The translations under genes and the position numbers were made by a program. The notes beneath the pieces are model-generated. The model had not been told where the DNA came from and did no database searches. It saw nothing but the letters and a program-made list of their open reading frames with translations. A stretch of DNA of 64,000 nt, taken from positions 224,001 to 288,000 of the forward strand of contig CAXXWQ010000002.1 in the NCBI GenBank assembly GCA_963674945.2, read 5' to 3'. The stretch is from an uncultured Desulfosarcina sp. (GTDB lineage Bacteria; Desulfobacterota; Desulfobacteria; Desulfobacterales; Desulfosarcinaceae). Below are positions 1 through 20,788 of this stretch, piece after piece; the stretch's first letter is position 1; each line of letters opens with the position of its first letter.

Positions 1-1978
1 TAATATTTCCCGCCACGTCCGCTAACAGTCCAACCCGGTCATAGGCTCTTACCAGAATCTTGACCGGGTAGGTTTCTTTTATTTCCTGGTTCCACTCCAC
101 TTCGATCTGGCGTTCCGGATTCAATTTCATTGCATTGACACAAGAGGTTCGGTGGATGGTTACCCCATGCCCCCGGGTAATGTAGCCCGTGATGGCGTCG
201 CCGGGCACCGGCTGGCAACACTTGCCGAATCGAACCAGGATATCGTCGATCCCCTTTACGATAACGCCGCCTTTCTCCTTTTTCTTTTTTTCCTTGGCGA
301 TGATTTTATTGAACAGGGACTTGTCGTCTTCTTCCTCTTCCTTGGGAGTGATTTTTCGGATGATCTGCAGTGGCGTGATCTTTCCGTAGCCGACGCTTGC
401 GATGAGATCCTCGGTCTGCTTGAATCCGAAACTCTCCACCACTTTTTCCATCTCGTCGGATTTGATCAGCGTGTTGAAATTCAGCCGGAACTTGCGAAAC
501 GCCTTTTCGCACATCTCCCGTCCCAAGGAGATGCTTCTTTCCTTCTCCTGGGTCTTGATCCACTGTCTGATGCGGGATCGGGCTTTGACCGTCTTGACGA
601 AATTGAGCCAGTCCTTGGATGGCTGGTGGCCCTTGCTGGTGATGACTTCGACGATTTCACCCGTCTGAAGCTTGTATTTTAGAGGTACCATCTGGCCATT
701 CACCTTGGCCCCCACACACTGATTGCCCACCTCTGTATGGATCAGGTAGGCGAAGTCAACCGGTGTCGCACCCTTGGGCAAGGACTTGATTTGCCCCTGG
801 GGGGTGAAGACGTAAATTTCGTCAGGAAACAGATCGATGCGAACATTTTCCAAAAACTCGTTTGGATCACGAAAGGCGGCTTGATTTTCAACCAGATTTT
901 GCACCCACGCAAAGGTCTTGGATGCCTTCTCGTCGATGACACGACCCTCCTTGTAACTCCAGTGGGCGGCGATACCAGAGTTTGCCACCCGGTCCATCTC
1001 ATGGGTACGAATCTGGATTTCGATGCGTTCACCGAATGGGCCGATGACCGTGGTGTGAAGGCTCTGGTACATGTTCGGCTTGGGCATGCCGATATAGTCC
1101 TTGAATTTTTTGGCGATGGGTCGCCAAAGGCTGTGCATGAGTCCCAGCGCCTCGTAGCATTGGGGAATGGTGTCCAGGATGATCCGGAATGCGATAATGT
1201 CGTATATCTCTTCGAAGGGCAGGTTCTGGGTGATCATCTTCTGGTGGATGCTGTAAAAGTGTTTGTAGCGTCCCGTAACTTCCGCTTGCAGGTTGTTTTC
1301 GTCCAGTTTTTTCTGTATGTAGCGCTTGACCGTCTCGACGTAGTTTTCCCGGTCTTCCTTGTCCTTGTCCACCCGTTTGCTTATCTCGTTGTAGGTTTCC
1401 GCATCCAGGAATTTAAAAGAGCTGTTTTCCAGTTCGTTCTTGATCCAGTAGATCCCAAGCCGGGCGGCGATGGGGGCGTAGATATCCAGGGTTTCCTGCG
1501 CGATTTTCCGTTTCTTGGCCTCGCTTTTATGGAACTGAAGGGTTCTCATGTTGTGGAGACGATCGGCCAGCTTGATGAGGATCACCCGGATGTCGTCGGC
1601 CATTGCCAGGAGCATTTTCCGGATGCTCTCGGCTTCCCGTGCCTGTGCGCTGTCGAAGGGAAGCATGCTCAACTTGGTGACGCCATTGACGATATGGAGC
1701 ACATCCGGGCCGAACATGTCTTTTATTTCGTCTTCGGTGGCATGCGTGTCTTCGATGACGTCATGGAGCAGGCCGGCGGCGATGCTGACCGAATCCAGCT
1801 TCATGTCCGCCAGAATACCGGCCACCTCCAGCGGATGGGAAAGATACGGCTCGCCCGACAGTCGCACCTGTCCGTCGTGAACCCGGGCGGAGAAGATATA
1901 GGCACGATCGACGATATCCACATCCGCATCGGGATGGTTCTCTGTGACCTTGTCGAGAATGTCGGTGATTCGAATCAT
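1..1978 (-). CDS. relA: RelA/SpoT (p)ppGpp synthetase/hydrolase, runs off the window's left edge
   Basis: Not in the ORF track. Manual translation from ATG 1978 gives MIRITDILDKV..., GEPYLSHP, LLHDVIEDT (HD domain), KLADRLHNMRT, AAHWSYK, and an ACT-domain segment (DRVGLLADV) near base 1. Confidence 0.95.
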   Translation of the reverse strand, partial: MIRITDILDKVTENHPDADVDIVDRAYIFSARVHDGQVRLSGEPYLSHPLEVAGILADMKLDSVSIAAGLLHDVIEDTHATEDEIKDMFGPDVLHIVNGVTKLSMLPFDSAQAREAESIRKMLLAMADDIRVILIKLADRLHNMRTLQFHKSEAKKRKIAQETLDIYAPIAARLGIYWIKNELENSSFKFLDAETYNEISKRVDKDKEDRENYVETVKRYIQKKLDENNLQAEVTGRYKHFYSIHQKMITQNLPFEEIYDIIAFRIILDTIPQCYEALGLMHSLWRPIAKKFKDYIGMPKPNMYQSLHTTVIGPFGERIEIQIRTHEMDRVANSGIAAHWSYKEGRVIDEKASKTFAWVQNLVENQAAFRDPNEFLENVRIDLFPDEIYVFTPQGQIKSLPKGATPVDFAYLIHTEVGNQCVGAKVNGQMVPLKYKLQTGEIVEVITSKGHQPSKDWLNFVKTVKARSRIRQWIKTQEKERSISLGREMCEKAFRKFRLNFNTLIKSDEMEKVVESFGFKQTEDLIASVGYGKITPLQIIRKITPKEEEEDDKSLFNKIIAKEKKKKEKGGVIVKGIDDILVRFGKCCQPVPGDAITGYITRGHGVTIHRTSCVNAMKLNPERQIEVEWNQEIKETYPVKILVRAYDRVGLLADVAGNI

Positions 1979-5584: not shown

Positions 5585-6025
5585 TCAGTCGGTGTTCTTG
5601 GGTACGGCTTCCACCGTTTGGGCCTTCACGGCGAGCCGAATGCCGTCCAGGATACCGTTGATGAATGCCCCGGACTCTTCGGTGCCGAATCGTTTCCCGA
5701 TGTCGATAGCTTCGTTGATGGAGACCTTGGCTGGAATATCCTCGCAGTAGAGCAGCTCGAAAACGGCAATGCGCAAAACGTTTCGATCCACACAGGACAT
5801 TCGAGACATCCGCCAGTTATCGGAGAATTGCTCGATTACACGATCGATCCGTTTCCGATTTTCTTGTACGCCGTCGATAATCCGATGAAAAAAGGGATGT
5901 GCGTTCCCGTCCTTGACGAAGCTTTTACAGTAATCGCCAACGGGGTCCGTTCCCGGATCACTATGCATGTCCGTATAAAAAAGTGCCTGAAGTGCCTGCT
6001 CCCTGGCGGTTCGACGGGTACCCAT
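5585..6025 (-). CDS. nusB: Transcription antitermination factor NusB
   Basis: MGTRRTAREQALQALF, DRNVLRIA, INEAIDIGK, FINGILD; lies directly after ribH. Confidence 0.95.
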   Translation of the reverse strand: MGTRRTAREQALQALFYTDMHSDPGTDPVGDYCKSFVKDGNAHPFFHRIIDGVQENRKRIDRVIEQFSDNWRMSRMSCVDRNVLRIAVFELLYCEDIPAKVSINEAIDIGKRFGTEESGAFINGILDGIRLAVKAQTVEAVPKNTD

Positions 6026-6027
6026 GA

Positions 6028-6501
6028 CTATTTTTTGCTCACGGTCTCCATGAGATTGGCCATTTCGATAGCGGCGATGGCGGCGTCCCACCCCTTGTTT
6101 CCCGCCTTGGAGCCGGCACGCTCGATGGCCTGTTCGATGGTATCCGTGGTGAGGATGCCGAAGATGACAGGGACCTGGGTCTCCATGGCTGCCTGGGCAA
6201 TCCCCTTGGACGCTTCGGCACATACATAGTCGTAGTGGGATGTTGCTCCGCGAATGACTGCACCCAGACAAATGATGGCGTCGTATTTTCCACTCTTGGC
6301 CATGCCCTGGGCCAGCATGGGAATTTCGAAGGCGCCCGGAACCTTGACGAGGTCGATTTCCTGATCTTTTGCACCGCTCCGCGTCAGCGCGTCGATGGCA
6401 CCGCCGACGAGCCGGTCGGTAATGAAGTCGTTGAATCGGCTGGCGACGATACCGAATCGTTTCCCTTTGGCGGCCAGTCCGGCTTCGATGATATTCGGCA
6501 T
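6028..6501 (-). CDS. ribH: 6,7-dimethyl-8-ribityllumazine synthase
   Basis: [31 protein letters not shown]. Confidence 0.97.
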
Positions 6502-6522
6502 TGAATAAATTTCCTTTATTTA

Positions 6523-7746
6523 TTAATGGGTTGCGGTCTCTTCAAAACTCAGGGTATGTCCCATTTTCAACTTCTTGCATTCTAGATAGCAGCGATTGTA
6601 TTCGTTGGGTGTCACCTCGATGGGGATCTGTTCCACCACGCTGAGCCCATAGCCTTGCAGCCCCACCATCTTCTTGGGATTGTTGGTTAACAGCCGCATC
6701 TTGCGAACCCCGATATTCACCAGCATCTGAGCACCGATGCCGTAGTCGCGCAAGTCATCCTTGAATCCCAGCTTCAGGTTGGCCTCCACCGTGTCCATTC
6801 CTTTGCATCGCTGCAACTCATATGCCTTGAGCTTGTTGATCAGTCCAATGCCCCGTCCTTCCTGGCGCAGGTACAGGATGACGCCTTTTCCCTCCTCGGC
6901 GATCATCTCCATGGCGGTGTGCAACTGGTCGCCACAATCGCAACGCATGGACCCGAAAATATCGCCTGTCATGCATTCGGAGTGCACGCGTACCATGACG
7001 GGCTCTTCCGGATCGATTTCTCCCTTGACCAAAGCGATGTGGGTCAGGTTGTCCACGTCATTTTCGAAGGCGACCATCTTGAAATCTCCGCCATACGCAG
7101 TCGGAATAACGGTCTCGGCGGCACGGTGAACGAAACTTTCCGTTCGAATCCGATACTCTACGAGATCGGCGATGGTGCAGATACCGATGCCGTGCTGCTG
7201 GCTGAACTCCTCCAAGGCGGGCATGCGGGCCATGTTGCCGTCATCGTCCATGATTTCGCAGATTACCCCAGACGGTTTGAGGCCGGCAAGACGGGCTAGA
7301 TCCACGCTTCCCTCGGTCTGGCCCACCCGCACCATGACGCCGCCGTTACGGGCGCGTAAGGGGAAAATATGACCGGGTCGGGTCAAGTCTTCCGGTTTGG
7401 CCCCGTCGGCGACTGCCGCGAGGACGGTGGTGGCCCGGTCGGCGGCCGAAATACCGGTGGTCACGCCGCATTTGGCTTCTATGGAGACGGTGAATCCGGT
7501 CTCGAAGGGACTGGTATTGTTTCGTACCATCAATGGAAGGTCCAATTGATCGCATTTTTCCGCGGTCAGTGAGAGGCAGATGAGGCCACGACCGTATTTG
7601 GCCATGAAATTGATGGCCTCGGGCGTCACCTTTTCCGCGGCCATGGTCAGGTCGCCTTCGTTTTCGCGATCTTCGTCGTCGACGAGAATTACCATTTTAC
7701 CATCGCGAATGTCTTCGATGGCTTGTTCGATGGATATTTGGGGCAT
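6523..7746 (-). CDS. ribBA: Bifunctional DHBP synthase / GTP cyclohydrolase II
   Basis: [47 protein letters not shown]. Confidence 0.97.
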
Positions 7747-13753: not shown

Positions 13754-14404
13754 ATGATCAATCCGGAGAAACTGCTTGGCGGACTGTTGCGAGGCTCCGC
13801 CCGGGGAAGCGGCAGAGGGTTGGGGGGGCTCGTCACCAGTGGTGTTGCCATGGGGGCATTGGGTGTCGCCATGGAGGCGGTGGAACATTTCTTGGGCAAG
13901 CCAACGGAGGCCTCCCATGCAGGCCCGACAGCCGGTGCTCCGACCATGTCCGGTCCACCACCGCCACCTCCGCCGGTAACGGGAAAGCCACCGGCATCGC
14001 CTCCACCGCCGCCCATGGCGTCGTCCCAGGAGACAACCGAAACCGACGGAAGATCGGATGCCGTGCTGCTCATTCGGGCGATGATCGCCGCGGCCAACGC
14101 CGATGGGATCATCGATGAAAAAGAGCGAGATAATATACTGAAACAACTTGAAATTGTTGCTTTATCACCGGAAGAGCACACCTTCATCGTCAAGGAACTG
14201 CTCTCGCCGGCGGACCTGGACGCCATCGTCGAAGGGGTGGATGCCCCTGAACTGGCACGGCAGGTATACGCCGTGTCCCTAATGGCCATCGAGGTGGACA
14301 CGGATCGAGAACGCGAGTACATGGAAAATCTGGCCCGCCGTTTGAAACTGGACGATGCTGCCATCGAGCAGATCCAAAACGGCATGGGGCTGAAATTATC
14401 GTAA
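13754..14404 (+). CDS. DUF533 / TerB-like tellurite-resistance-family protein with polyproline linker
   Basis: LLIRAMIAAANADG.ID..E, VYAVSLMAI.VD...E..Y...LA..L; P7 and P5 runs. Confidence 0.8.
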   Translation: MINPEKLLGGLLRGSARGSGRGLGGLVTSGVAMGALGVAMEAVEHFLGKPTEASHAGPTAGAPTMSGPPPPPPPVTGKPPASPPPPPMASSQETTETDGRSDAVLLIRAMIAAANADGIIDEKERDNILKQLEIVALSPEEHTFIVKELLSPADLDAIVEGVDAPELARQVYAVSLMAIEVDTDREREYMENLARRLKLDDAAIEQIQNGMGLKLS

Positions 14405-14417
14405 GGAGGAGTTTGAA

Positions 14418-15425
14418 ATGACCCAGTGGTATTTGAGCTTTGATGGAAATCAGGTGGGCCCCATGGAGTTGTCCGAAGCCGTCGCCACGGCCCGGGAAAA
14501 TCCGGAAGGGTTTGCATGGCGGGAGGGGTTTGCCCAGTGGCAGCCCATTGCCAGCATCGCCGAACTCAACCCTTCGACAGGCGTTCCGGTGCCCGGCCCC
14601 CCACCAATGGCGGGTGGAGGCACGCGGGCGGATGAAATCGACTATACGATTTTCGGAGCCGAGATGCAGTTCGTGGAAGTGGAGCTGGATCCCGGCGAAA
14701 GCGCCGTGGCCGAGGCCGGCGCCATGATGTACAAGGACAGCAGTATCGACATGCAGACCGTGTTTGGGGATGGGTCTGCCCGTTCCGGCGGGGGTGGATT
14801 TATGGATAAGCTGCTGGGGGCGGGCAAACGGCTGCTTACCGGGGAGAGCCTCTTCATGACCGTGTTTACCCATACCGGTCAAGGCAAGGCCCACGTATCC
14901 TTCGGTGCTCCCTATCCGGGGAACATCATTCCCGTGCCCCTGACCAGTGTCGGCGGGTGCCTGATCTGCCAAAAGGATAGCTTCCTTTGTGCGGCAAAGG
15001 GGGTTTCCATCGGCATTCACATGCAAAAGAAAATCCTCACGGGACTATTCGGCGGCGAAGGCTTCATCATGCAAAAGCTGGAGGGCGATGGCATGGTCTT
15101 CGTCCATGCCGGCGGCACCGTAGTGGAGCGTGAACTCAAACAAGGAGAAGTCCTGGACGTGGACACCGGCTGCATCGTGGCCTTGGAGCAGAGCGTCAGC
15201 TTTGATATCCGTCAGGCGGGAAACATCAAGACGGCCCTGTTCGGCGGCGAAGGCCTGTTCTTTGCCACCTTGCAGGGACCCGGACGGATTTGGCTTCAGA
15301 GCCTGCCCTTTTCCCGCCTAGCCGGCCGCATGCTCCAGGCGGCACCCCAGAAAGGGGGAAGCCGGGGCGAAGGGTCCATCCTCGGCTCGTTGGGGGGGCT
15401 GATCGATGGTGACAACCGTTTTTAG
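14418..15425 (+). CDS. TIGR00266/AIM24-family protein with N-terminal GYF_2-like domain
   Basis: N-terminal WY....GNQVGPM..WREGFAQW; AEAGAMMY, TGESLF, FGGEG repeats, WLQSLP. Confidence 0.88.
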   Translation: MTQWYLSFDGNQVGPMELSEAVATARENPEGFAWREGFAQWQPIASIAELNPSTGVPVPGPPPMAGGGTRADEIDYTIFGAEMQFVEVELDPGESAVAEAGAMMYKDSSIDMQTVFGDGSARSGGGGFMDKLLGAGKRLLTGESLFMTVFTHTGQGKAHVSFGAPYPGNIIPVPLTSVGGCLICQKDSFLCAAKGVSIGIHMQKKILTGLFGGEGFIMQKLEGDGMVFVHAGGTVVERELKQGEVLDVDTGCIVALEQSVSFDIRQAGNIKTALFGGEGLFFATLQGPGRIWLQSLPFSRLAGRMLQAAPQKGGSRGEGSILGSLGGLIDGDNRF

Positions 15426-15889: not shown

Positions 15890-16217
15890 GAGATCCTTGT
15901 TGTCGAATTGATCGAACACGTATTTGCAGGTGGCGCTCCATCGAGAGCGTATCGTTATCACTGATATACATTAAAAACCAAGGAAGCGGTACACCGCTCC
16001 CGTAATCATTGCCATCGTCTATGCGCAACCGGAATGTCAAAATTTGACACGGGTGCCGATCATCACGAGATTGATGTCTTCGATGTCTGAATGGAATCCA
16101 TCCGAAAACCAGCGACGGATGGATTCCAATCGGAGGGAGGTGTCAATCCAAAACGATCCCAGACCCATGGAAAGACGATACTTTTGAGTAAGACAACCCT
16201 TTCTGCGTCAGATCATC

Positions 16218-16583
16218 TCAGGCGAAAATATCCTGGGGCATATACGGATGGGCGCCTTCAATTACCTCTATTCCGGCTTTTGCCTTTACTTTTCGGATGA
16301 TGGCTTCACTGTGGGGACAGTGATCCGTAATGCAGGGTGCAATATGCACACGGGTCGGTTTTTCGGCCATCGGTTTGTTCCAGAGGCTCAATTGCGCCAG
16401 TCGTGTAACGATTGTGGCTCCAGGACAATCTCCGCAGCTGAGAAGGCCAATCACTTCAGCCTCTTTCCCGGCATACCTTTCAAAGGCGCCTTTTCTACGA
16501 TTAAATCCCACCAAACATCGCGAACATCCAATGCAAACTTCGTTCATGGCTCTTTGACAACCAACAATGAGTATCTTTTCCAT
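16218..16583 (-). CDS. CGGC-domain Cys-rich protein
   Basis: IVGC, CIGCSRC, SCGDCPG, HIAPC..HCP, EGAH. Confidence 0.8.
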   Translation of the reverse strand: MEKILIVGCQRAMNEVCIGCSRCLVGFNRRKGAFERYAGKEAEVIGLLSCGDCPGATIVTRLAQLSLWNKPMAEKPTRVHIAPCITDHCPHSEAIIRKVKAKAGIEVIEGAHPYMPQDIFA

Positions 16584-16652
16584 GGCCACTCCAATCGTTA
16601 CTGGTAAAAAGGTCGAGGCGGATCGAAAACCACAATTCAGAATATAACGGGC

Positions 16653-18506
16653 TTACATGTGACTCGCATTGATCAGCAGATGAACGATAATGCTGGCTGC
16701 ATAGCCAATGGCAATGATGGGGGTCCACTTGAGATGGGCGCCGAAAGTGTATTTCCCACGGGCTGTGCCCATCAGGGCCACACCGGCTGCCGATCCGATG
16801 GACAGCAGGCTGCCGCCCACGCCGGCCGTCAGGGTTACCAACAGCCACTGGCCGTGAGACATCTCCGGCGACATGGTGAGCACGGCGAACATTACCGGAA
16901 TGTTGTCCACGATGGCCGACAGGAGGCCCACCATGGTGTTGGCCCAGGTGGCGCCTAAATCGTGGTAAAGAAACTGCGAGACGGCTGCCAGGTAGCCGAA
17001 CTGGGCCAAGCCGCCAACACAGAGAATGACGCCGTAGAAAAAAAGCAGCGTGTCCCACTCCGCCTGGGCGATGCGCTTCATGATATCGAAATGGGCCATA
17101 CTCTTTTTCTGGTTGGTGAAATCCTGTAGGACCTCCATGGCGCCGATCACGTTGCCGCCGATATCCTTGAGCGGAAGGGCAGAAAAGGTGATCCACTTGC
17201 CGCCGTCATTCAATTCAGGGAAAAACGCGCTGGCATCGTATGTATCCTTCACGCGGGGATTTTTGCGGTAGCCTTGTTTGTAGTGCTCGCTGATCACCTT
17301 TTCCGGCTGGTAGTCGAGGATCAGGTCGGCCATGCAGGGTCTCTCGCTCGGATAAAAGGGTTTCCACTGGTTGTTGGTGCCGATCATCTCCTCGGCCTTG
17401 AGGCCGGTCAGATCTTCCATGGCCCTGTTCCAGTGGGTGATCACATGATTCGTGTCGATGGCAAAGGTCGGTTCGGGCATGCGATTCATGAATTTGTCGA
17501 TGCTCACTCTGCGTTCGATCAACCGGGTCAGTGGCTGCAATGTCATGTCGGTCCCGGTGCCGAGAATGCCGTCATAGGATTCACTACGCCCCTCGTAGCG
17601 TTTGATGTAGTAGGAAAAGGCACCCAGGTACGCCATGCCGAGCATCATTCCGGCGGCCGGCGGCAAGTGCAGAAAATTGTGGAAGCTCACGGCGGTGATG
17701 ATGGTGGCCAGAAACAGACCGATGATCACGAAACCGCCGAACTTCACTCTTACCTTCTCCTTGACCTGCTTGGGCGGTTCCTTGCCCACTGCAAGGCTCA
17801 TGACAACCGCCGGAACCAGCCAGTTGACGGCCGAGGGGACGAAAATGGAAAAAAACTCAATAAAATCAACTTTTCCTTTTTGCCACACCATCAACGTGGT
17901 GATGTCGCCAAAGGGTGAAAAAGCACCTCCAGCATTGGCGGCCACCACCACATTGATGCAGGCCAGTGCTACGAACTTGATGTTGTCGCCGGCAACGGCC
18001 ATCACCACCGCACCCATCAACAGGGCGGTGGTGAGGTTGTCGGCCACGGGCGAGATGAAAAATGCCAACAGGCCGGTGACCCAGAAGATCATACGCAGGG
18101 AAAAGCCGCGGGTGACCAGCCAGGCGCGCAGCGCCTGGAACACGTTGCGTTCTTCCATGGAGTTGATGTAGGTCATGGCGGCCAACAGGAATAAAAACAG
18201 CTCCGCGTACTCGAGCAGGTTGTTCTTGATGGCCTCGTGTGCGCTGTGGGTGTCACCGATCTTAATATAGGCGACGGCCAGCAGCACCCAGATAATACCG
18301 GCGGCAAAAAGTACCGGCTTGCTTTTACGCAGGTGGATGTTGTTCTCCAACGGCACAAGGCAGTAGGCTGCCACAAAGATAAAAATGCCCAGATAGCCGT
18401 AAATCGTATGGGTCAGATCGGCCGGGGCGGCACCATGCCCTTCCGAAGCGAAAGCGATCGCCGGCATGGCCAAAAAGCAAAAAAGCATCCGTACAATAGT
18501 TCTCAT
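16653..18506 (-). CDS. nhaD: NhaD-family Na+/H+ antiporter with inserted PAS domain
   Basis: LRKSKPV, FLFLLAAMTYIN, SPVADNLTT, AANAGGAFSPFGDITT, EWDTLLFFYG, SAIVDNIP, GGSLLSIGSAAGVALMG; PAS at about 17105-17500. Confidence 0.9.
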   Translation of the reverse strand: MRTIVRMLFCFLAMPAIAFASEGHGAAPADLTHTIYGYLGIFIFVAAYCLVPLENNIHLRKSKPVLFAAGIIWVLLAVAYIKIGDTHSAHEAIKNNLLEYAELFLFLLAAMTYINSMEERNVFQALRAWLVTRGFSLRMIFWVTGLLAFFISPVADNLTTALLMGAVVMAVAGDNIKFVALACINVVVAANAGGAFSPFGDITTLMVWQKGKVDFIEFFSIFVPSAVNWLVPAVVMSLAVGKEPPKQVKEKVRVKFGGFVIIGLFLATIITAVSFHNFLHLPPAAGMMLGMAYLGAFSYYIKRYEGRSESYDGILGTGTDMTLQPLTRLIERRVSIDKFMNRMPEPTFAIDTNHVITHWNRAMEDLTGLKAEEMIGTNNQWKPFYPSERPCMADLILDYQPEKVISEHYKQGYRKNPRVKDTYDASAFFPELNDGGKWITFSALPLKDIGGNVIGAMEVLQDFTNQKKSMAHFDIMKRIAQAEWDTLLFFYGVILCVGGLAQFGYLAAVSQFLYHDLGATWANTMVGLLSAIVDNIPVMFAVLTMSPEMSHGQWLLVTLTAGVGGSLLSIGSAAGVALMGTARGKYTFGAHLKWTPIIAIGYAASIIVHLLINASHM

Positions 18507-18652
18507 CGCACCACCTTTCATCCAGTAAGCCAGATAAATGAGTAAATATTTTCGCCACCCAACCAAAAAAAAGGCTTCAATCTATTCCTATCAAAACGCT
18601 AGGTCAAGGAAAAATTCGGAGAGATATTGATTGAGGGCAAACCGAAATCGAA

Positions 18653-19052
18653 TTGCGTTTGAGCGAGGAACGCTATCGAAGGTTCTTCGAACAAGACATT
18701 ATCGGGGACCTGTTGACATCAATGGATGGCAAAATCATCTTTTCACCACCAAGGATAAGGCGGAGGGAACAGGGTTGGGGTTTCCCGTGGTTCACGGTAT
18801 TTTTACCAAGTCCAAAGGGGGCGATCAAAGTGGCTTCCTCGCATAAAGGGACCCGATTCGACGTCTTCTTGCCCTATCTGGATGACGATGTGTCGAACCT
18901 TCTTCCCAAAATTTACAATCGATTCCCACGGGAAGTGAAACCATCGTTATCGCGGATGGCGAGGACTTCATCGTTTATATAGAAACACAGGTGCTGACAT
19001 CGCTTGGCTATCATGTCACCGGGTTAACAAGCAGCGCTGAGGCCCTGCAATA
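18653..19052 (+). pseudogene. Remnant of a hybrid PAS/histidine kinase/receiver gene
   Basis: Frameshifted fragments: LRLSEERYRRFFE (PAS start), FTTK..EGTGLG..VHGI (HATPase), GTRFDVFLP, GSETIVIAD..LGYHVT..SSAEAL (receiver). Confidence 0.75.
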
Positions 19053-19109
19053 GGTAGCGGAACAAACAGATGCGGATAGGAGCGGTTCGAGAAAATAGTG
19101 AATGTCCGT

Positions 19110-19251: not shown

Positions 19252-19594
19252 CTGATTACCTCTAAGCATAACTGAAACGGTCTGTATGCGATGAATATCA
19301 TATCGTTTTTAGGTATTCGCGGGCTGTCGTCCAGCGGAAAACCGAAATTGATCTGGGTGTATGCGTTTGTACAAACTTGCCCGTGACAACTGCGCATATT
19401 AACGATTGGTGATTCCTGAAACGGTCCGTTGACAATGCCTATGCCAAGGGGTATCAATACAAAATCGTTGCCGATGATTAGACCGGCCTTGTCCTCCCCA
19501 TGGTTGTATCTTTTTGTTGCACTGCGATCGTCTCTTCTTACATGCACGGACAACCCTGCCGGACGCAAATTCGATTTTCTGGAAGGAAGGAGAT

Positions 19595-20170
19595 ATGCAA
19601 GCCAAAGCGATACGATGGTTTTCATTGGGGCTTATCGTAATTGTCACGGTGGCTTCTTCGGTGGATGGATATGAAACGCCGGGGGAAGGCGCGTACTTGC
19701 CTGATTTCGAGCTTGAAGTCCCTCAAAGTCAGACAGCGCGCCAATATCTCGGCCTGTCGGGGGAAGGACGCTTTCGAATTTCCCAGATCATGGCCGATTT
19801 CGTTATCATGGAAATATTCAGCATGTATTGCCCCCATTGCCAACGGGAGGCGCCGACGATGAATGCGTTTTACCACCGCATCGAAAGCTCACCAAAATTG
19901 CGTGACCGGGTAAAACTCATCGGCATCGGTGTGGGCAACTCCCCCTTGGAGGTGGACTTTTTCCGAGAGCAGTACAACGTTCCCTTCCCCTTGTTCGCTG
20001 ACGGCGATTTTGCCATCCACAAGCTGATCGGCGAGGTACGCACACCCTATTTCTTCGGCGTCGCCATTACACCAGATGGTTCGCAGCGGATCTTTTTTTC
20101 CGGGCTCGGCGGTGCAAAAGATGCCCAGGCGCTGTTGGATGAGATGATCCAAAAAACCGGCTTGGAATGA
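19595..20170 (+). CDS. Exported TlpA-like thioredoxin-fold redoxin
   Basis: Signal peptide, FSMYCPHC, cis-Pro motif RTPYF. Confidence 0.85.
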   Translation: MQAKAIRWFSLGLIVIVTVASSVDGYETPGEGAYLPDFELEVPQSQTARQYLGLSGEGRFRISQIMADFVIMEIFSMYCPHCQREAPTMNAFYHRIESSPKLRDRVKLIGIGVGNSPLEVDFFREQYNVPFPLFADGDFAIHKLIGEVRTPYFFGVAITPDGSQRIFFSGLGGAKDAQALLDEMIQKTGLE

Positions 20171-20179
20171 GAAAGGAAC

Positions 20180-20788
20180 ATGAGGGCCATGATACCCATT
20201 CACAGGATTGGGCTGGTTACGGCGTGGCTATTGCTGTTTTGGGTGCAACACGCATCCGCAATCTCGGCGTCATTCAAAGACGACATTTACAATCCCGGTG
20301 CGCTGAAACCCATCGACAGCGAAATTCGGGTCGCCGTCGGGGAGGAGGCGCCGGGGTTCAGCTTGCCTTCACTTTCGGGAAGCCGTGTCTCTCTTGCTCA
20401 GTTCAAAGGCAAACAAAATGTTGTGCTCTCCTTCGTGCCGGCTGCCTGGACGCCGGTGTGCTCCGACCAGTGGCCGGGTTATAATATTGCCAAATCGCTC
20501 TTCGATCAGTACGAGGCCGTTCTGCTGGGCATTACCGTGGATAATCTGCCGACCCTCTATGCCTGGACCAGGCAGATGGGACAGCTGTGGTTTCCTGTGC
20601 TCTCAGACTTCTGGCCCCATGGGAAGACCGCGGCAAAATACGGCTTGCTGCGGTCGGACGGCACCAGCGAGCGGGCCCTGATCTTCATCGACAAGCTGGG
20701 CATCATCAGGCATATTCACGTGGAAGACATCAACCGGCGCCCGAAGTTGGAAGTCATCGTCGAGGCCCTGAAGAAGCTTCAATTTTAG
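20180..20788 (+). CDS. Exported peroxiredoxin (AhpC/TSA, AhpE-like)
   Basis: Signal peptide; FVPAAWTPVC peroxidatic motif; LSDFWPHG, SERA. Confidence 0.87.
   Translation: MRAMIPIHRIGLVTAWLLLFWVQHASAISASFKDDIYNPGALKPIDSEIRVAVGEEAPGFSLPSLSGSRVSLAQFKGKQNVVLSFVPAAWTPVCSDQWPGYNIAKSLFDQYEAVLLGITVDNLPTLYAWTRQMGQLWFPVLSDFWPHGKTAAKYGLLRSDGTSERALIFIDKLGIIRHIHVEDINRRPKLEVIVEALKKLQF

Follow-up and report, generated by a model that had tools for sequence, protein, structure and literature searches.

A PAS domain built in-frame into an NhaD-family transporter of an uncultured Desulfosarcina and its relatives

The stretch of DNA that we analysed, hereafter the window, comprises 64,000 nucleotides from an uncultured Desulfosarcina sp. 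(GenBank assembly GCA_963674945.2, contig CAXXWQ010000002.1, positions 224,001 to 288,000). Its minus strand carries a gene, here called nhaD-PAS, that encodes an NhaD-family transporter with a complete PAS domain lying in-frame within the membrane part of the protein. All coordinates are positions in the window, and residue numbers are those of the 617-amino-acid (aa) nhaD-PAS protein. The gene and its parts are as follows, with transmembrane helices (TM) and hairpins named after ArsB.

16653..18506, minus strand: nhaD-PAS coding sequence, 617 codons plus a TAA stop, with NhaD_1, CitMHS and PAS family matches
18444..18506, minus strand: N-terminal hydrophobic segment, residues 1-21 (...AIAFA/SE), signal-peptide-like or an extra first helix (model helix 2-22)
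17595..18404, minus strand: transporter core part 1, residues 35-304, comprising the first repeat (ArsB TM1-5 and hairpin 1), the inter-repeat linker, TM6 and TM7, as placed by secondary structure assignment (DSSP) of the model and by superposition on ArsB
17496..17594, minus strand: pre-PAS linker, residues 305-337, holding two short helices and a motif specific to the clade, EGR..YD.ILG
17109..17495, minus strand: PAS domain, residues 338-466, delimited by PAS profiles, model strands and PAS structure matches
17058..17108, minus strand: post-PAS segment, residues 467-483, a pair of short helices rich in K/R (4 K+R) that connect to TM8
16656..17057, minus strand: transporter core part 2, residues 484-617, comprising TM8/8c, hairpin 2, TM9a/L2/TM9b and TM10, with the second NhaD_1 and CitMHS stretches

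The coding sequence lies within an open reading frame (ORF) at 16653..18566, and its start codon at 18506 (MRTIV...) agrees with the starts of homologues and is preceded by an AGGTGG-like ribosome-binding site. The protein scores 582.7 bits against the NCBIfam equivalog model NhaD_1 (NF038006), for which the cut-off is 80, and the match falls into two stretches, the first covering residues 59-305 and profile positions 1-247 of 405; the Pfam CitMHS match is likewise split in two. Between the NhaD stretches lie matches to PAS profiles, namely PF00989 (38.7 bits, cut-off 22.6) and PF08448 PAS_4 (36.6 bits over residues 341-467, cut-off 23.1), together with PF13188 PAS_8 (22.7 bits, cut-off 21.8) and TIGR00229 sensory_box (31.6 bits, cut-off 22.9). 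Matches to sequences in the PDB were to plant phytochrome PAS domains (phytochrome B PAS, E 9e-9, residues 338-473), and sequence and profile searches of the PDB with nhaD-PAS returned phytochrome PAS and other PAS domains only, with no transporter matches. An earlier interpretation made from the letters of the window (the sequence-only reading) had described an intact NhaD transporter with a complete PAS domain inserted in-frame at about 17105-17500. The NhaD_1 match, a structural model and structure matches all bear this description out, as do the PAS profiles, all four of which score above cut-off, and the proposed limits agree closely with those that we found.

The nearest NhaD proteins that lack a PAS domain (P0123, P0124, P0126, P0127 and P0137) are 473-488 aa long and 61-65% identical to nhaD-PAS in the membrane parts. 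At the insertion site they have a hydrophilic loop of just 35-50 residues, where nhaD-PAS has about 170 extra residues made up of linker and PAS. In other respects nhaD-PAS resembles the NhaD antiporters (TC 2.A.62), whose characterised members are Vibrio and Halomonas proteins, as judged by its NhaD_1 score and, in comparison with database relatives, by its membrane-part identity and its hairpin-tip and loop motifs. The hairpin-tip residues D156, N157, D534 and N535 and residue D201 of loop L1 are invariant in the 33 PAS-containing forms aligned. N191, G193, G194, G200 and D201 do not vary in any of the 63 rows of the larger alignment, PAS-less forms included, and N157 and N535 are kept in at least 90% of them. 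The ion site of IT transporters is built from polar residues at both hairpin tips and both broken helices, and the equivalence of these positions to N111, D112 and N337 of ArsB is drawn from helix order alone. In the pre-PAS linker, E305, G306, D312 and L315 are invariant in the 33 PAS forms and are not seen in PAS-less relatives, whereas the FDI...AEWDT stretch of the post-PAS segment is conserved in PAS-less relatives too. From the family assignment, the substrate of nhaD-PAS would be Na+(Li+)/H+. The passages on NhaD in a 2022 review of prokaryotic Na+/H+ exchangers describe it as a member of the IT superfamily with a VcINDY-like predicted fold (PMC9408914).

Other PAS-less NhaD proteins carry insertions of a different kind. 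In P0125 the PAS site is occupied by a loop of low complexity, about 100 aa long, and the protein has a C-terminal tail of about 200 aa; in P0146 and P0152 the first hairpin is followed by a long acidic insert, also of low complexity (roughly 140-200 aa), so that several loops of the NhaD fold tolerate large insertions.

We modelled the full-length protein from the 63-row alignment, which includes PAS-less NhaD proteins; this model has a predicted local distance difference test score (pLDDT) of 88.5 and a predicted template modelling score (pTM) of 0.75, and it replaced a poor first model built from 33 close homologues (pLDDT 65.7). Over residues 331-460 the mean pLDDT is 80-97 per ten-residue block, and residues 308-318 of the pre-PAS linker are predicted to be disordered (pLDDT <50). 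The best structural match is the arsenite efflux pump ArsB of Leptospirillum ferriphilum (PDB 10tp_A; Z 37.4, root mean square deviation 2.9 Å, 397 of 428 residues aligned), and DASS transporters match at Z 20-30, with NaS1, NaCT, VcINDY and Pho90 at Z 24-30. As modelled, nhaD-PAS has the elevator fold of the IT superfamily, an inverted repeat of five TM and one re-entrant hairpin each; a comparison of the N-terminal with the C-terminal half by hhalign found no significant repeat at the level of sequence (probability 0.7%). ArsB and nhaD-PAS share this repeat and the division into scaffold and transport domains. ArsB differs from nhaD-PAS in sequence (15% identity) and in substrate, and it lacks both a soluble domain between TM7 and TM8 and the extra N-terminal hydrophobic segment. 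That segment lies upstream of the part of nhaD-PAS that aligns with ArsB residue 1 (aligned model part 37..616), and its sequence suggests that it is cleaved. The model assigns the following elements to residues.

35-50: TM1
62-83: TM2
86-132: TM3 and 3c
137-172: hairpin 1, tip D156-N157
176-209: TM4a/L1/TM4b
216-237: TM5
238-257: K/R-rich inter-repeat linker
258-278: TM6
283-304: TM7
305-483: pre-PAS linker, PAS domain and post-PAS segment
484-517: TM8 and 8c
519-545: hairpin 2, tip D534-N535
551-581: TM9a/L2/TM9b
595-612: TM10

In the passages of PMC13381914 that deal with its architecture, ArsB has 10 TM and 2 hairpins with both termini periplasmic. A linker on the cytoplasmic side connects TM1-5, the first half, with TM6-10, the second, and TM1-3 with TM6-8 form the scaffold, which is the dimerisation part of IT transporters, while the transport domain reaches out on the cytoplasmic side in the inward-facing state (PMC13381914). 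In our model two scaffold helices flank the PAS insertion, 283-304 on one side and 484-503 on the other, the counterparts of ArsB TM7 and TM8. We also considered a position in the central loop between the two repeats and rejected it, since the order of helices relative to ArsB puts the inter-repeat linker at 238-257 and the PAS domain one helix pair later. The predicted cytoplasmic segments hold at least 24 K+R and the predicted periplasmic ones 2, and a signal-peptide-like N-terminal segment fits a periplasmic start of TM1. Given the ArsB topology, this distribution of K and R, and the presence of a related PAS domain, from the same subfamily, in a DNA-binding regulator of LuxR type (see below), the PAS-bearing loop is predicted to face the cytoplasm. 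Structure prediction, the check on loop topology that the sequence-only reading had proposed, puts the PAS loop between the equivalents of TM7 and TM8, on the predicted cytoplasmic side.

Within the insert, the model contains the five-stranded sheet of the PAS fold (strands 347-351, 356-359, 423-429, 437-447 and 453-462) together with helices, and it matches PAS structures of WalK, BvgS, CitA, VqmA, PYP and LOV proteins at Z 9.6-11.5. Residues of the PAS domain that are invariant in the 33 sequences include F348, H354, W359, N360, W381, F384, D394 and Y409. We searched all ORFs of the 7.08-Mb genome to which the window belongs with a hidden Markov model (HMM) of the insert. NhaD itself scored 231 bits, eight further domains scored 157-171 bits, one scored 86, and the rest scored no more than 25. 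Six of the eight are tandem repeats in a 1595-aa PAS/GAF/HisKA/HATPase kinase, and the other two lie in an 816-aa hybrid kinase and a 493-aa PAS-PAS-GerE (LuxR-type) regulator; the nhaD insert is 38-49% identical to them. On these sequence scores the PAS domain of nhaD-PAS belongs to a distinct, sharply delimited subfamily that is otherwise used in cytoplasmic signalling proteins. Its signature is PTF.I..H..THWN...LTG...GT..W..F...RP..AD...Y...FFP..G..G.W..F.A.P...G..GA.E...D.T. In the multi-PAS kinases of Desulfobacterales, domains of this subfamily are strung together in soluble proteins with kinase, GAF, receiver or DNA-binding outputs, whereas nhaD-PAS has a single copy embedded in a transporter.

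We then considered what the conserved residues say about the chemistry of the domain. The cysteine that forms the LOV adduct, the cysteine of PYP and the CXXCH motif mark the LOV (flavin mononucleotide), PYP and c-type haem classes of PAS domain, respectively. No invariant or near-invariant cysteine occurs in residues 338-466 of the 33 sequences or in ten subfamily domains of the same genome, and where the window protein has C391, homologues have A, T, V, S or P. The lack of a conserved cysteine excludes chemistry of the LOV, PYP or c-haem type, and no support emerged for a redox cofactor behind the gating proposed in the sequence-only reading. In PAS domains that bind haem b, such as those of FixL and DosP, the proximal histidine is on the F-alpha helix, and those that bind flavin, such as those of NifL and Aer, have flavin-contacting residues. 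There is no invariant histidine on the predicted F-alpha helices (residues 392-408) in the 33 sequences; H354 is invariant and H358 nearly so, both near the A-beta/B-beta turn, and DosP and NifL are generic fold matches only. At the C-terminal side of the last PAS strand stands D-[FIY]-[TS], which we take to resemble the 'DIT' output motif of PAS kinases.

A region-restricted homologue search with the PAS domain, which was word-limited (104 candidates, 31 matches), returned no other transporter family, which is not evidence of absence; its 31 matches were NhaD-PAS proteins, kinases and one sigma-54 activator. A homodimer prediction for residues 320-482 in two copies gave a score of 0.00 and, having been run without controls, is evidence neither way. 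The locus of the six-PAS kinase (G000:C2:321500-329500), which lies outside the window, has tandem-Usp genes on both flanks and, upstream of these, a gene for a CitMHS_2 transporter of the IT superfamily. This PAS subfamily may have a connection with IT transporters both in cis and in trans.

The PAS-in-NhaD architecture is conserved across an order of sulfate reducers. All 120 of the best database clusters (formed at 90% identity) fall in the same length class, about 600-740 aa and nearly all about 615 aa, and are 65-89% identical to the window protein. A precomputed PAS family is listed for 116 of them, and the four that list PF03600 alone (P0095, P0100, P0105 and P0106) have the same PAS insert in their sequence. 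The clusters come from Desulfobacteraceae, Desulfatitalea, Desulfobacterales and one Desulfofustis, the genera Desulfofustis and Desulfatitalea being in different classes by NCBI taxonomy. Full-length nhaD-PAS was found in 13 of 40 relatives' genomes and in 22 of 250 genomes drawn evenly from the same order, the 22 bearing 13 family labels; beyond these, the sample of 250 held one copy split in two by a TAA (G490:C17:1015727-1017558), one truncated match and one PAS-less form. Among 300 genomes drawn across the phylum none has nhaD-PAS, and seven carry solely PAS-less NhaD genes, 471-534 aa in length. Two paralogous nhaD-PAS genes, with 82% and 79% identity to that of the window, occur in a single relative (G470:C2:3012743-3014584 and 1811216-1813057). 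In another, two inverted copies with identical scores lie 1.1 kb apart on a short contig (G030:C105:2647-4491, minus, and 5636-7480, plus; locus L009), which may reflect either a false palindrome created during assembly or a genuine inverted duplication.

When database sequences were clustered at 50% identity, the PAS form reduced to one full-length representative, P0121. In a quick maximum-likelihood search on core columns only, with 34 PAS forms and 29 PAS-less forms (the latter chosen by length, fragments excluded), all 34 PAS forms stood on one side of a branch with a Shimodaira-Hasegawa-like approximate likelihood ratio (SH-aLRT) support of 99, so the clade apparently acquired its PAS domain once. 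The PAS part is under purifying selection. The median ratio of nonsynonymous to synonymous substitution rates (dN/dS; 66 pairs, 12 genes) is 0.194 for PAS and 0.175 for the linker, and the two parts of the core have medians of 0.093 and 0.082; distant pairs are near synonymous saturation, and the six closest pairs give PAS ratios of about 0.08-0.23.

We consider it probable that nhaD-PAS is an ArsB-like elevator transporter of the NhaD family whose PAS domain, placed in a predicted cytoplasmic loop of the scaffold, serves as a built-in sensor that tunes or switches Na+/H+ exchange; a sensor regulating the antiporter to which it is fused seems the most economical reading of the sequence. The PAS domain would sense a cytoplasmic signal and bias the elevator cycle. 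It might do so by acting on TM8 and its horizontal arm 8c, which in the model run directly on into hairpin 2, part of the mobile transport domain, or by blocking the cytoplasmic face, where that domain would protrude in the inward-facing state. The genome has other antiporter genes, namely one NhaA and five Na_H_Exchanger (CPA) genes, and we found neither an NhaC nor a second NhaD in it, so a specialised, conditionally active antiporter is plausible. We are more doubtful than confident about a fuller version, in which the protein would be a one-protein device where a cytoplasmic signal (metabolite, redox or energy state) directly brakes or releases the elevator, and in which the PAS domain may also pair with the repeats of the six-PAS kinase and so couple ion flux to two-component signalling.

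Several observations weigh against regulation of an NhaD antiporter by its PAS domain. The protein scores 414 bits against TIGR00775 (NhaD), below the cut-off of 577.1; this model is older and narrower than NhaD_1, and we take the score to mean that the nhaD-PAS clade is a divergent branch of NhaD. The ArsB numbering of the helices, on which the placement of the PAS domain depends, comes from helix order and overall superposition, not from a residue-level alignment. We recognised no cofactor or ligand signature among the conserved PAS residues. Finally, the first model had a single unbroken helix running from the PAS domain into the membrane, and in the better model this connection is broken into 464-470, 475-480 and 484-503, with a mean pLDDT of about 71-72 over 461-480, so a rigid signalling helix from PAS to TM8 is unsupported.

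One alternative concerns the gene that follows nhaD-PAS, which is listed here with the predicted transcription signals.

16218..16589, minus strand: CGGC-domain gene, 123 aa (PF08821, 94.1 bits), downstream of nhaD-PAS and on the same strand
15982..16001, minus strand: terminator-like hairpin 3' of the CGGC gene (8 pairs, 6 G-C, T-run), a likely transcript end
18579..18607, minus strand: promoter-like site upstream of nhaD-PAS (TTGACC, 17 nt, TAGATT), from a consensus scan

The sequence-only reading had placed a Cys-rich CGGC gene 70 nucleotides (nt) downstream and suggested it as a partner. The gene is real; the gap measures 63 nt, and it contains no terminator-like site. Since the two genes share a strand across this gap and a strong terminator-like site follows the CGGC gene, they are probably co-transcribed in this genome. 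The promoter-like site is weak evidence because such sites are no commoner than in shuffled sequence. The same arrangement would suit a functional two-gene unit in which the Cys-rich protein delivers a redox or metal signal to NhaD-PAS. We regard this as very improbable, however, since a tblastn search with the CGGC protein found it at 0 of 11 relatives' nhaD-PAS loci (1.5 kb on each side), which makes the CGGC gene a local neighbour rather than a conserved partner. The neighbours at those loci are instead an SLT transglycosylase gene upstream (7 of 11) and, downstream, a convergent ChaN gene (4 of 11) or a gene for a Fer4 protein (2 of 11), and no conserved partner gene emerges. Further still from credible is that the gene is decaying and its insert junk, or that it was joined wrongly in assembly, a chimera being a possibility that the sequence-only reading had itself raised; we found no evidence in favour of either and count both as refuted. 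The reading frame is intact, the insert is under selection, and the architecture recurs throughout the 120 clusters and in the 22 genomes of 13 families. In addition, an 889-nt contig, present in two public runs of one sample that may be the source of the genome, matches 17019..17907 without a difference and spans both PAS junctions. Logan contigs end inside the gene at 17019-17046 and 17878-17912, in transporter parts and away from the PAS junctions, and two minor contig joints (17157 to 17421 and 18184 to 18313) have sides of just 21-23 letters, which we take to be short words common to other sequences and not deletions.

Two further alternatives accept the architecture and give the PAS domain another role; each strikes us as unlikely, with some evidence on its side. 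The domain could be a docking module that pairs with its subfamily counterparts in the six-PAS kinase or in other signalling proteins, so that the transporter reports to the kinase or the kinase controls the transporter, much as in the transceptor or co-sensor arrangement of DctA and DcuS. The 38-49% identity of the insert to the PAS domains of the two kinases and the LuxR-type regulator, with no intermediate matches, is consistent with such pairing, as are the presence of such kinases in most relatives searched and the position of the six-PAS kinase gene beside Usp genes and another IT-superfamily transporter gene. However, the kinase gene and nhaD-PAS are about 83 kb apart on the contig, and many relatives have the kinase without NhaD-PAS, so the kinase is independent of NhaD-PAS. 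Alternatively, the domain could be a structural or assembly element that receives no signal and contributes to dimer or scaffold stability or to membrane insertion, with transport being constitutive; we would be about as surprised by this as by docking. The missing cofactor residues would be explained, the unrelated loop of P0125 indicates that the site accepts other insertions, and the scaffold in which the insert sits is the part through which IT transporters dimerise. A purely structural element is harder to reconcile with a full PAS fold whose many invariant polar and aromatic residues are kept under purifying selection, and with a subfamily that otherwise serves sensor kinases and a transcription factor.

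Among the papers of the library searched, we found none that combines NhaD with a PAS domain or that treats a PAS domain inserted in such a transporter, and the NhaD passages of PMC9408914 make no mention of regulatory domains. The statement in the sequence-only reading that no PAS-containing NhaD has been described therefore holds for the literature searched; it does not hold in the sense of a one-off, since more than 100 database clusters carry the architecture under the automatic names 'sodium:proton antiporter NhaD' or 'PAS domain-containing protein'. Because these proteins are public and we found no paper on them, we regard the architecture as unstudied rather than unseen. Transport proteins with built-in cytoplasmic domains are familiar, among them IT permeases with TrkA_C/RCK_C, KefC with KTN, CLC and MgtE with CBS, and SulP with STAS, and the N-terminal PAS domain of KCNH (EAG/hERG) channels shows that a PAS domain can modulate an ion pathway. 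Like these, nhaD-PAS joins a soluble sensor domain to a membrane transport protein. It differs in combining a PAS domain with a secondary antiporter as host, and in the site, which lies between two scaffold helices and not at a terminus or in the inter-repeat linker.

Known regulation of NhaD, NhaA and NhaB is by pH sensing in the membrane domain or is transcriptional, and a whole clade with a dedicated soluble sensor would be unlike it. Should the PAS domain control transport, it would offer a handle on allosteric gating of elevator transporters from the scaffold side, and on the cytoplasmic cue by which sulfate reducers adjust Na+/H+ cycling, a central part of their low-energy bioenergetics. 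It would then be the first PAS-gated secondary transporter and a template for ligand-switchable transporters. As a compact single-gene system it comes with natural controls, the PAS-less relatives at 61-65% identity. The PAS subfamily is uncharacterised, and its ligand would annotate many kinases as well. Since the hypothesis is directly testable, we expect nhaD-PAS to be of moderate to high interest to specialists in transport and signalling.

Around nhaD-PAS, we made several minor observations. Divergent from it, at 18635-19053 on the plus strand, lies a remnant of a hybrid histidine kinase spread over three frames. By eye its pieces are a PAS start (LSEERYRRFFEQ...), a HATPase G2-box (GTGLGFPVVHG) with the C-terminal end, and a receiver start (IVIADGEDFIV...); a Pfam search with a 109-aa ORF of the remnant gave no match, and the whole looks like a decayed gene. 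DUF533/TerB-like and GYF_2 + AIM24 genes, at 13754-14404 (the former, with a proline-rich stretch) and 14418-15425 on the plus strand, appear unrelated to nhaD-PAS. On the strand opposite to nhaD-PAS and about 1 kb upstream of it, an ORF at 19514-20170 (plus) has a Pfam AhpC/TSA match, and the adjoining ORF at 20180-20788 (plus) is peroxiredoxin-like by eye.

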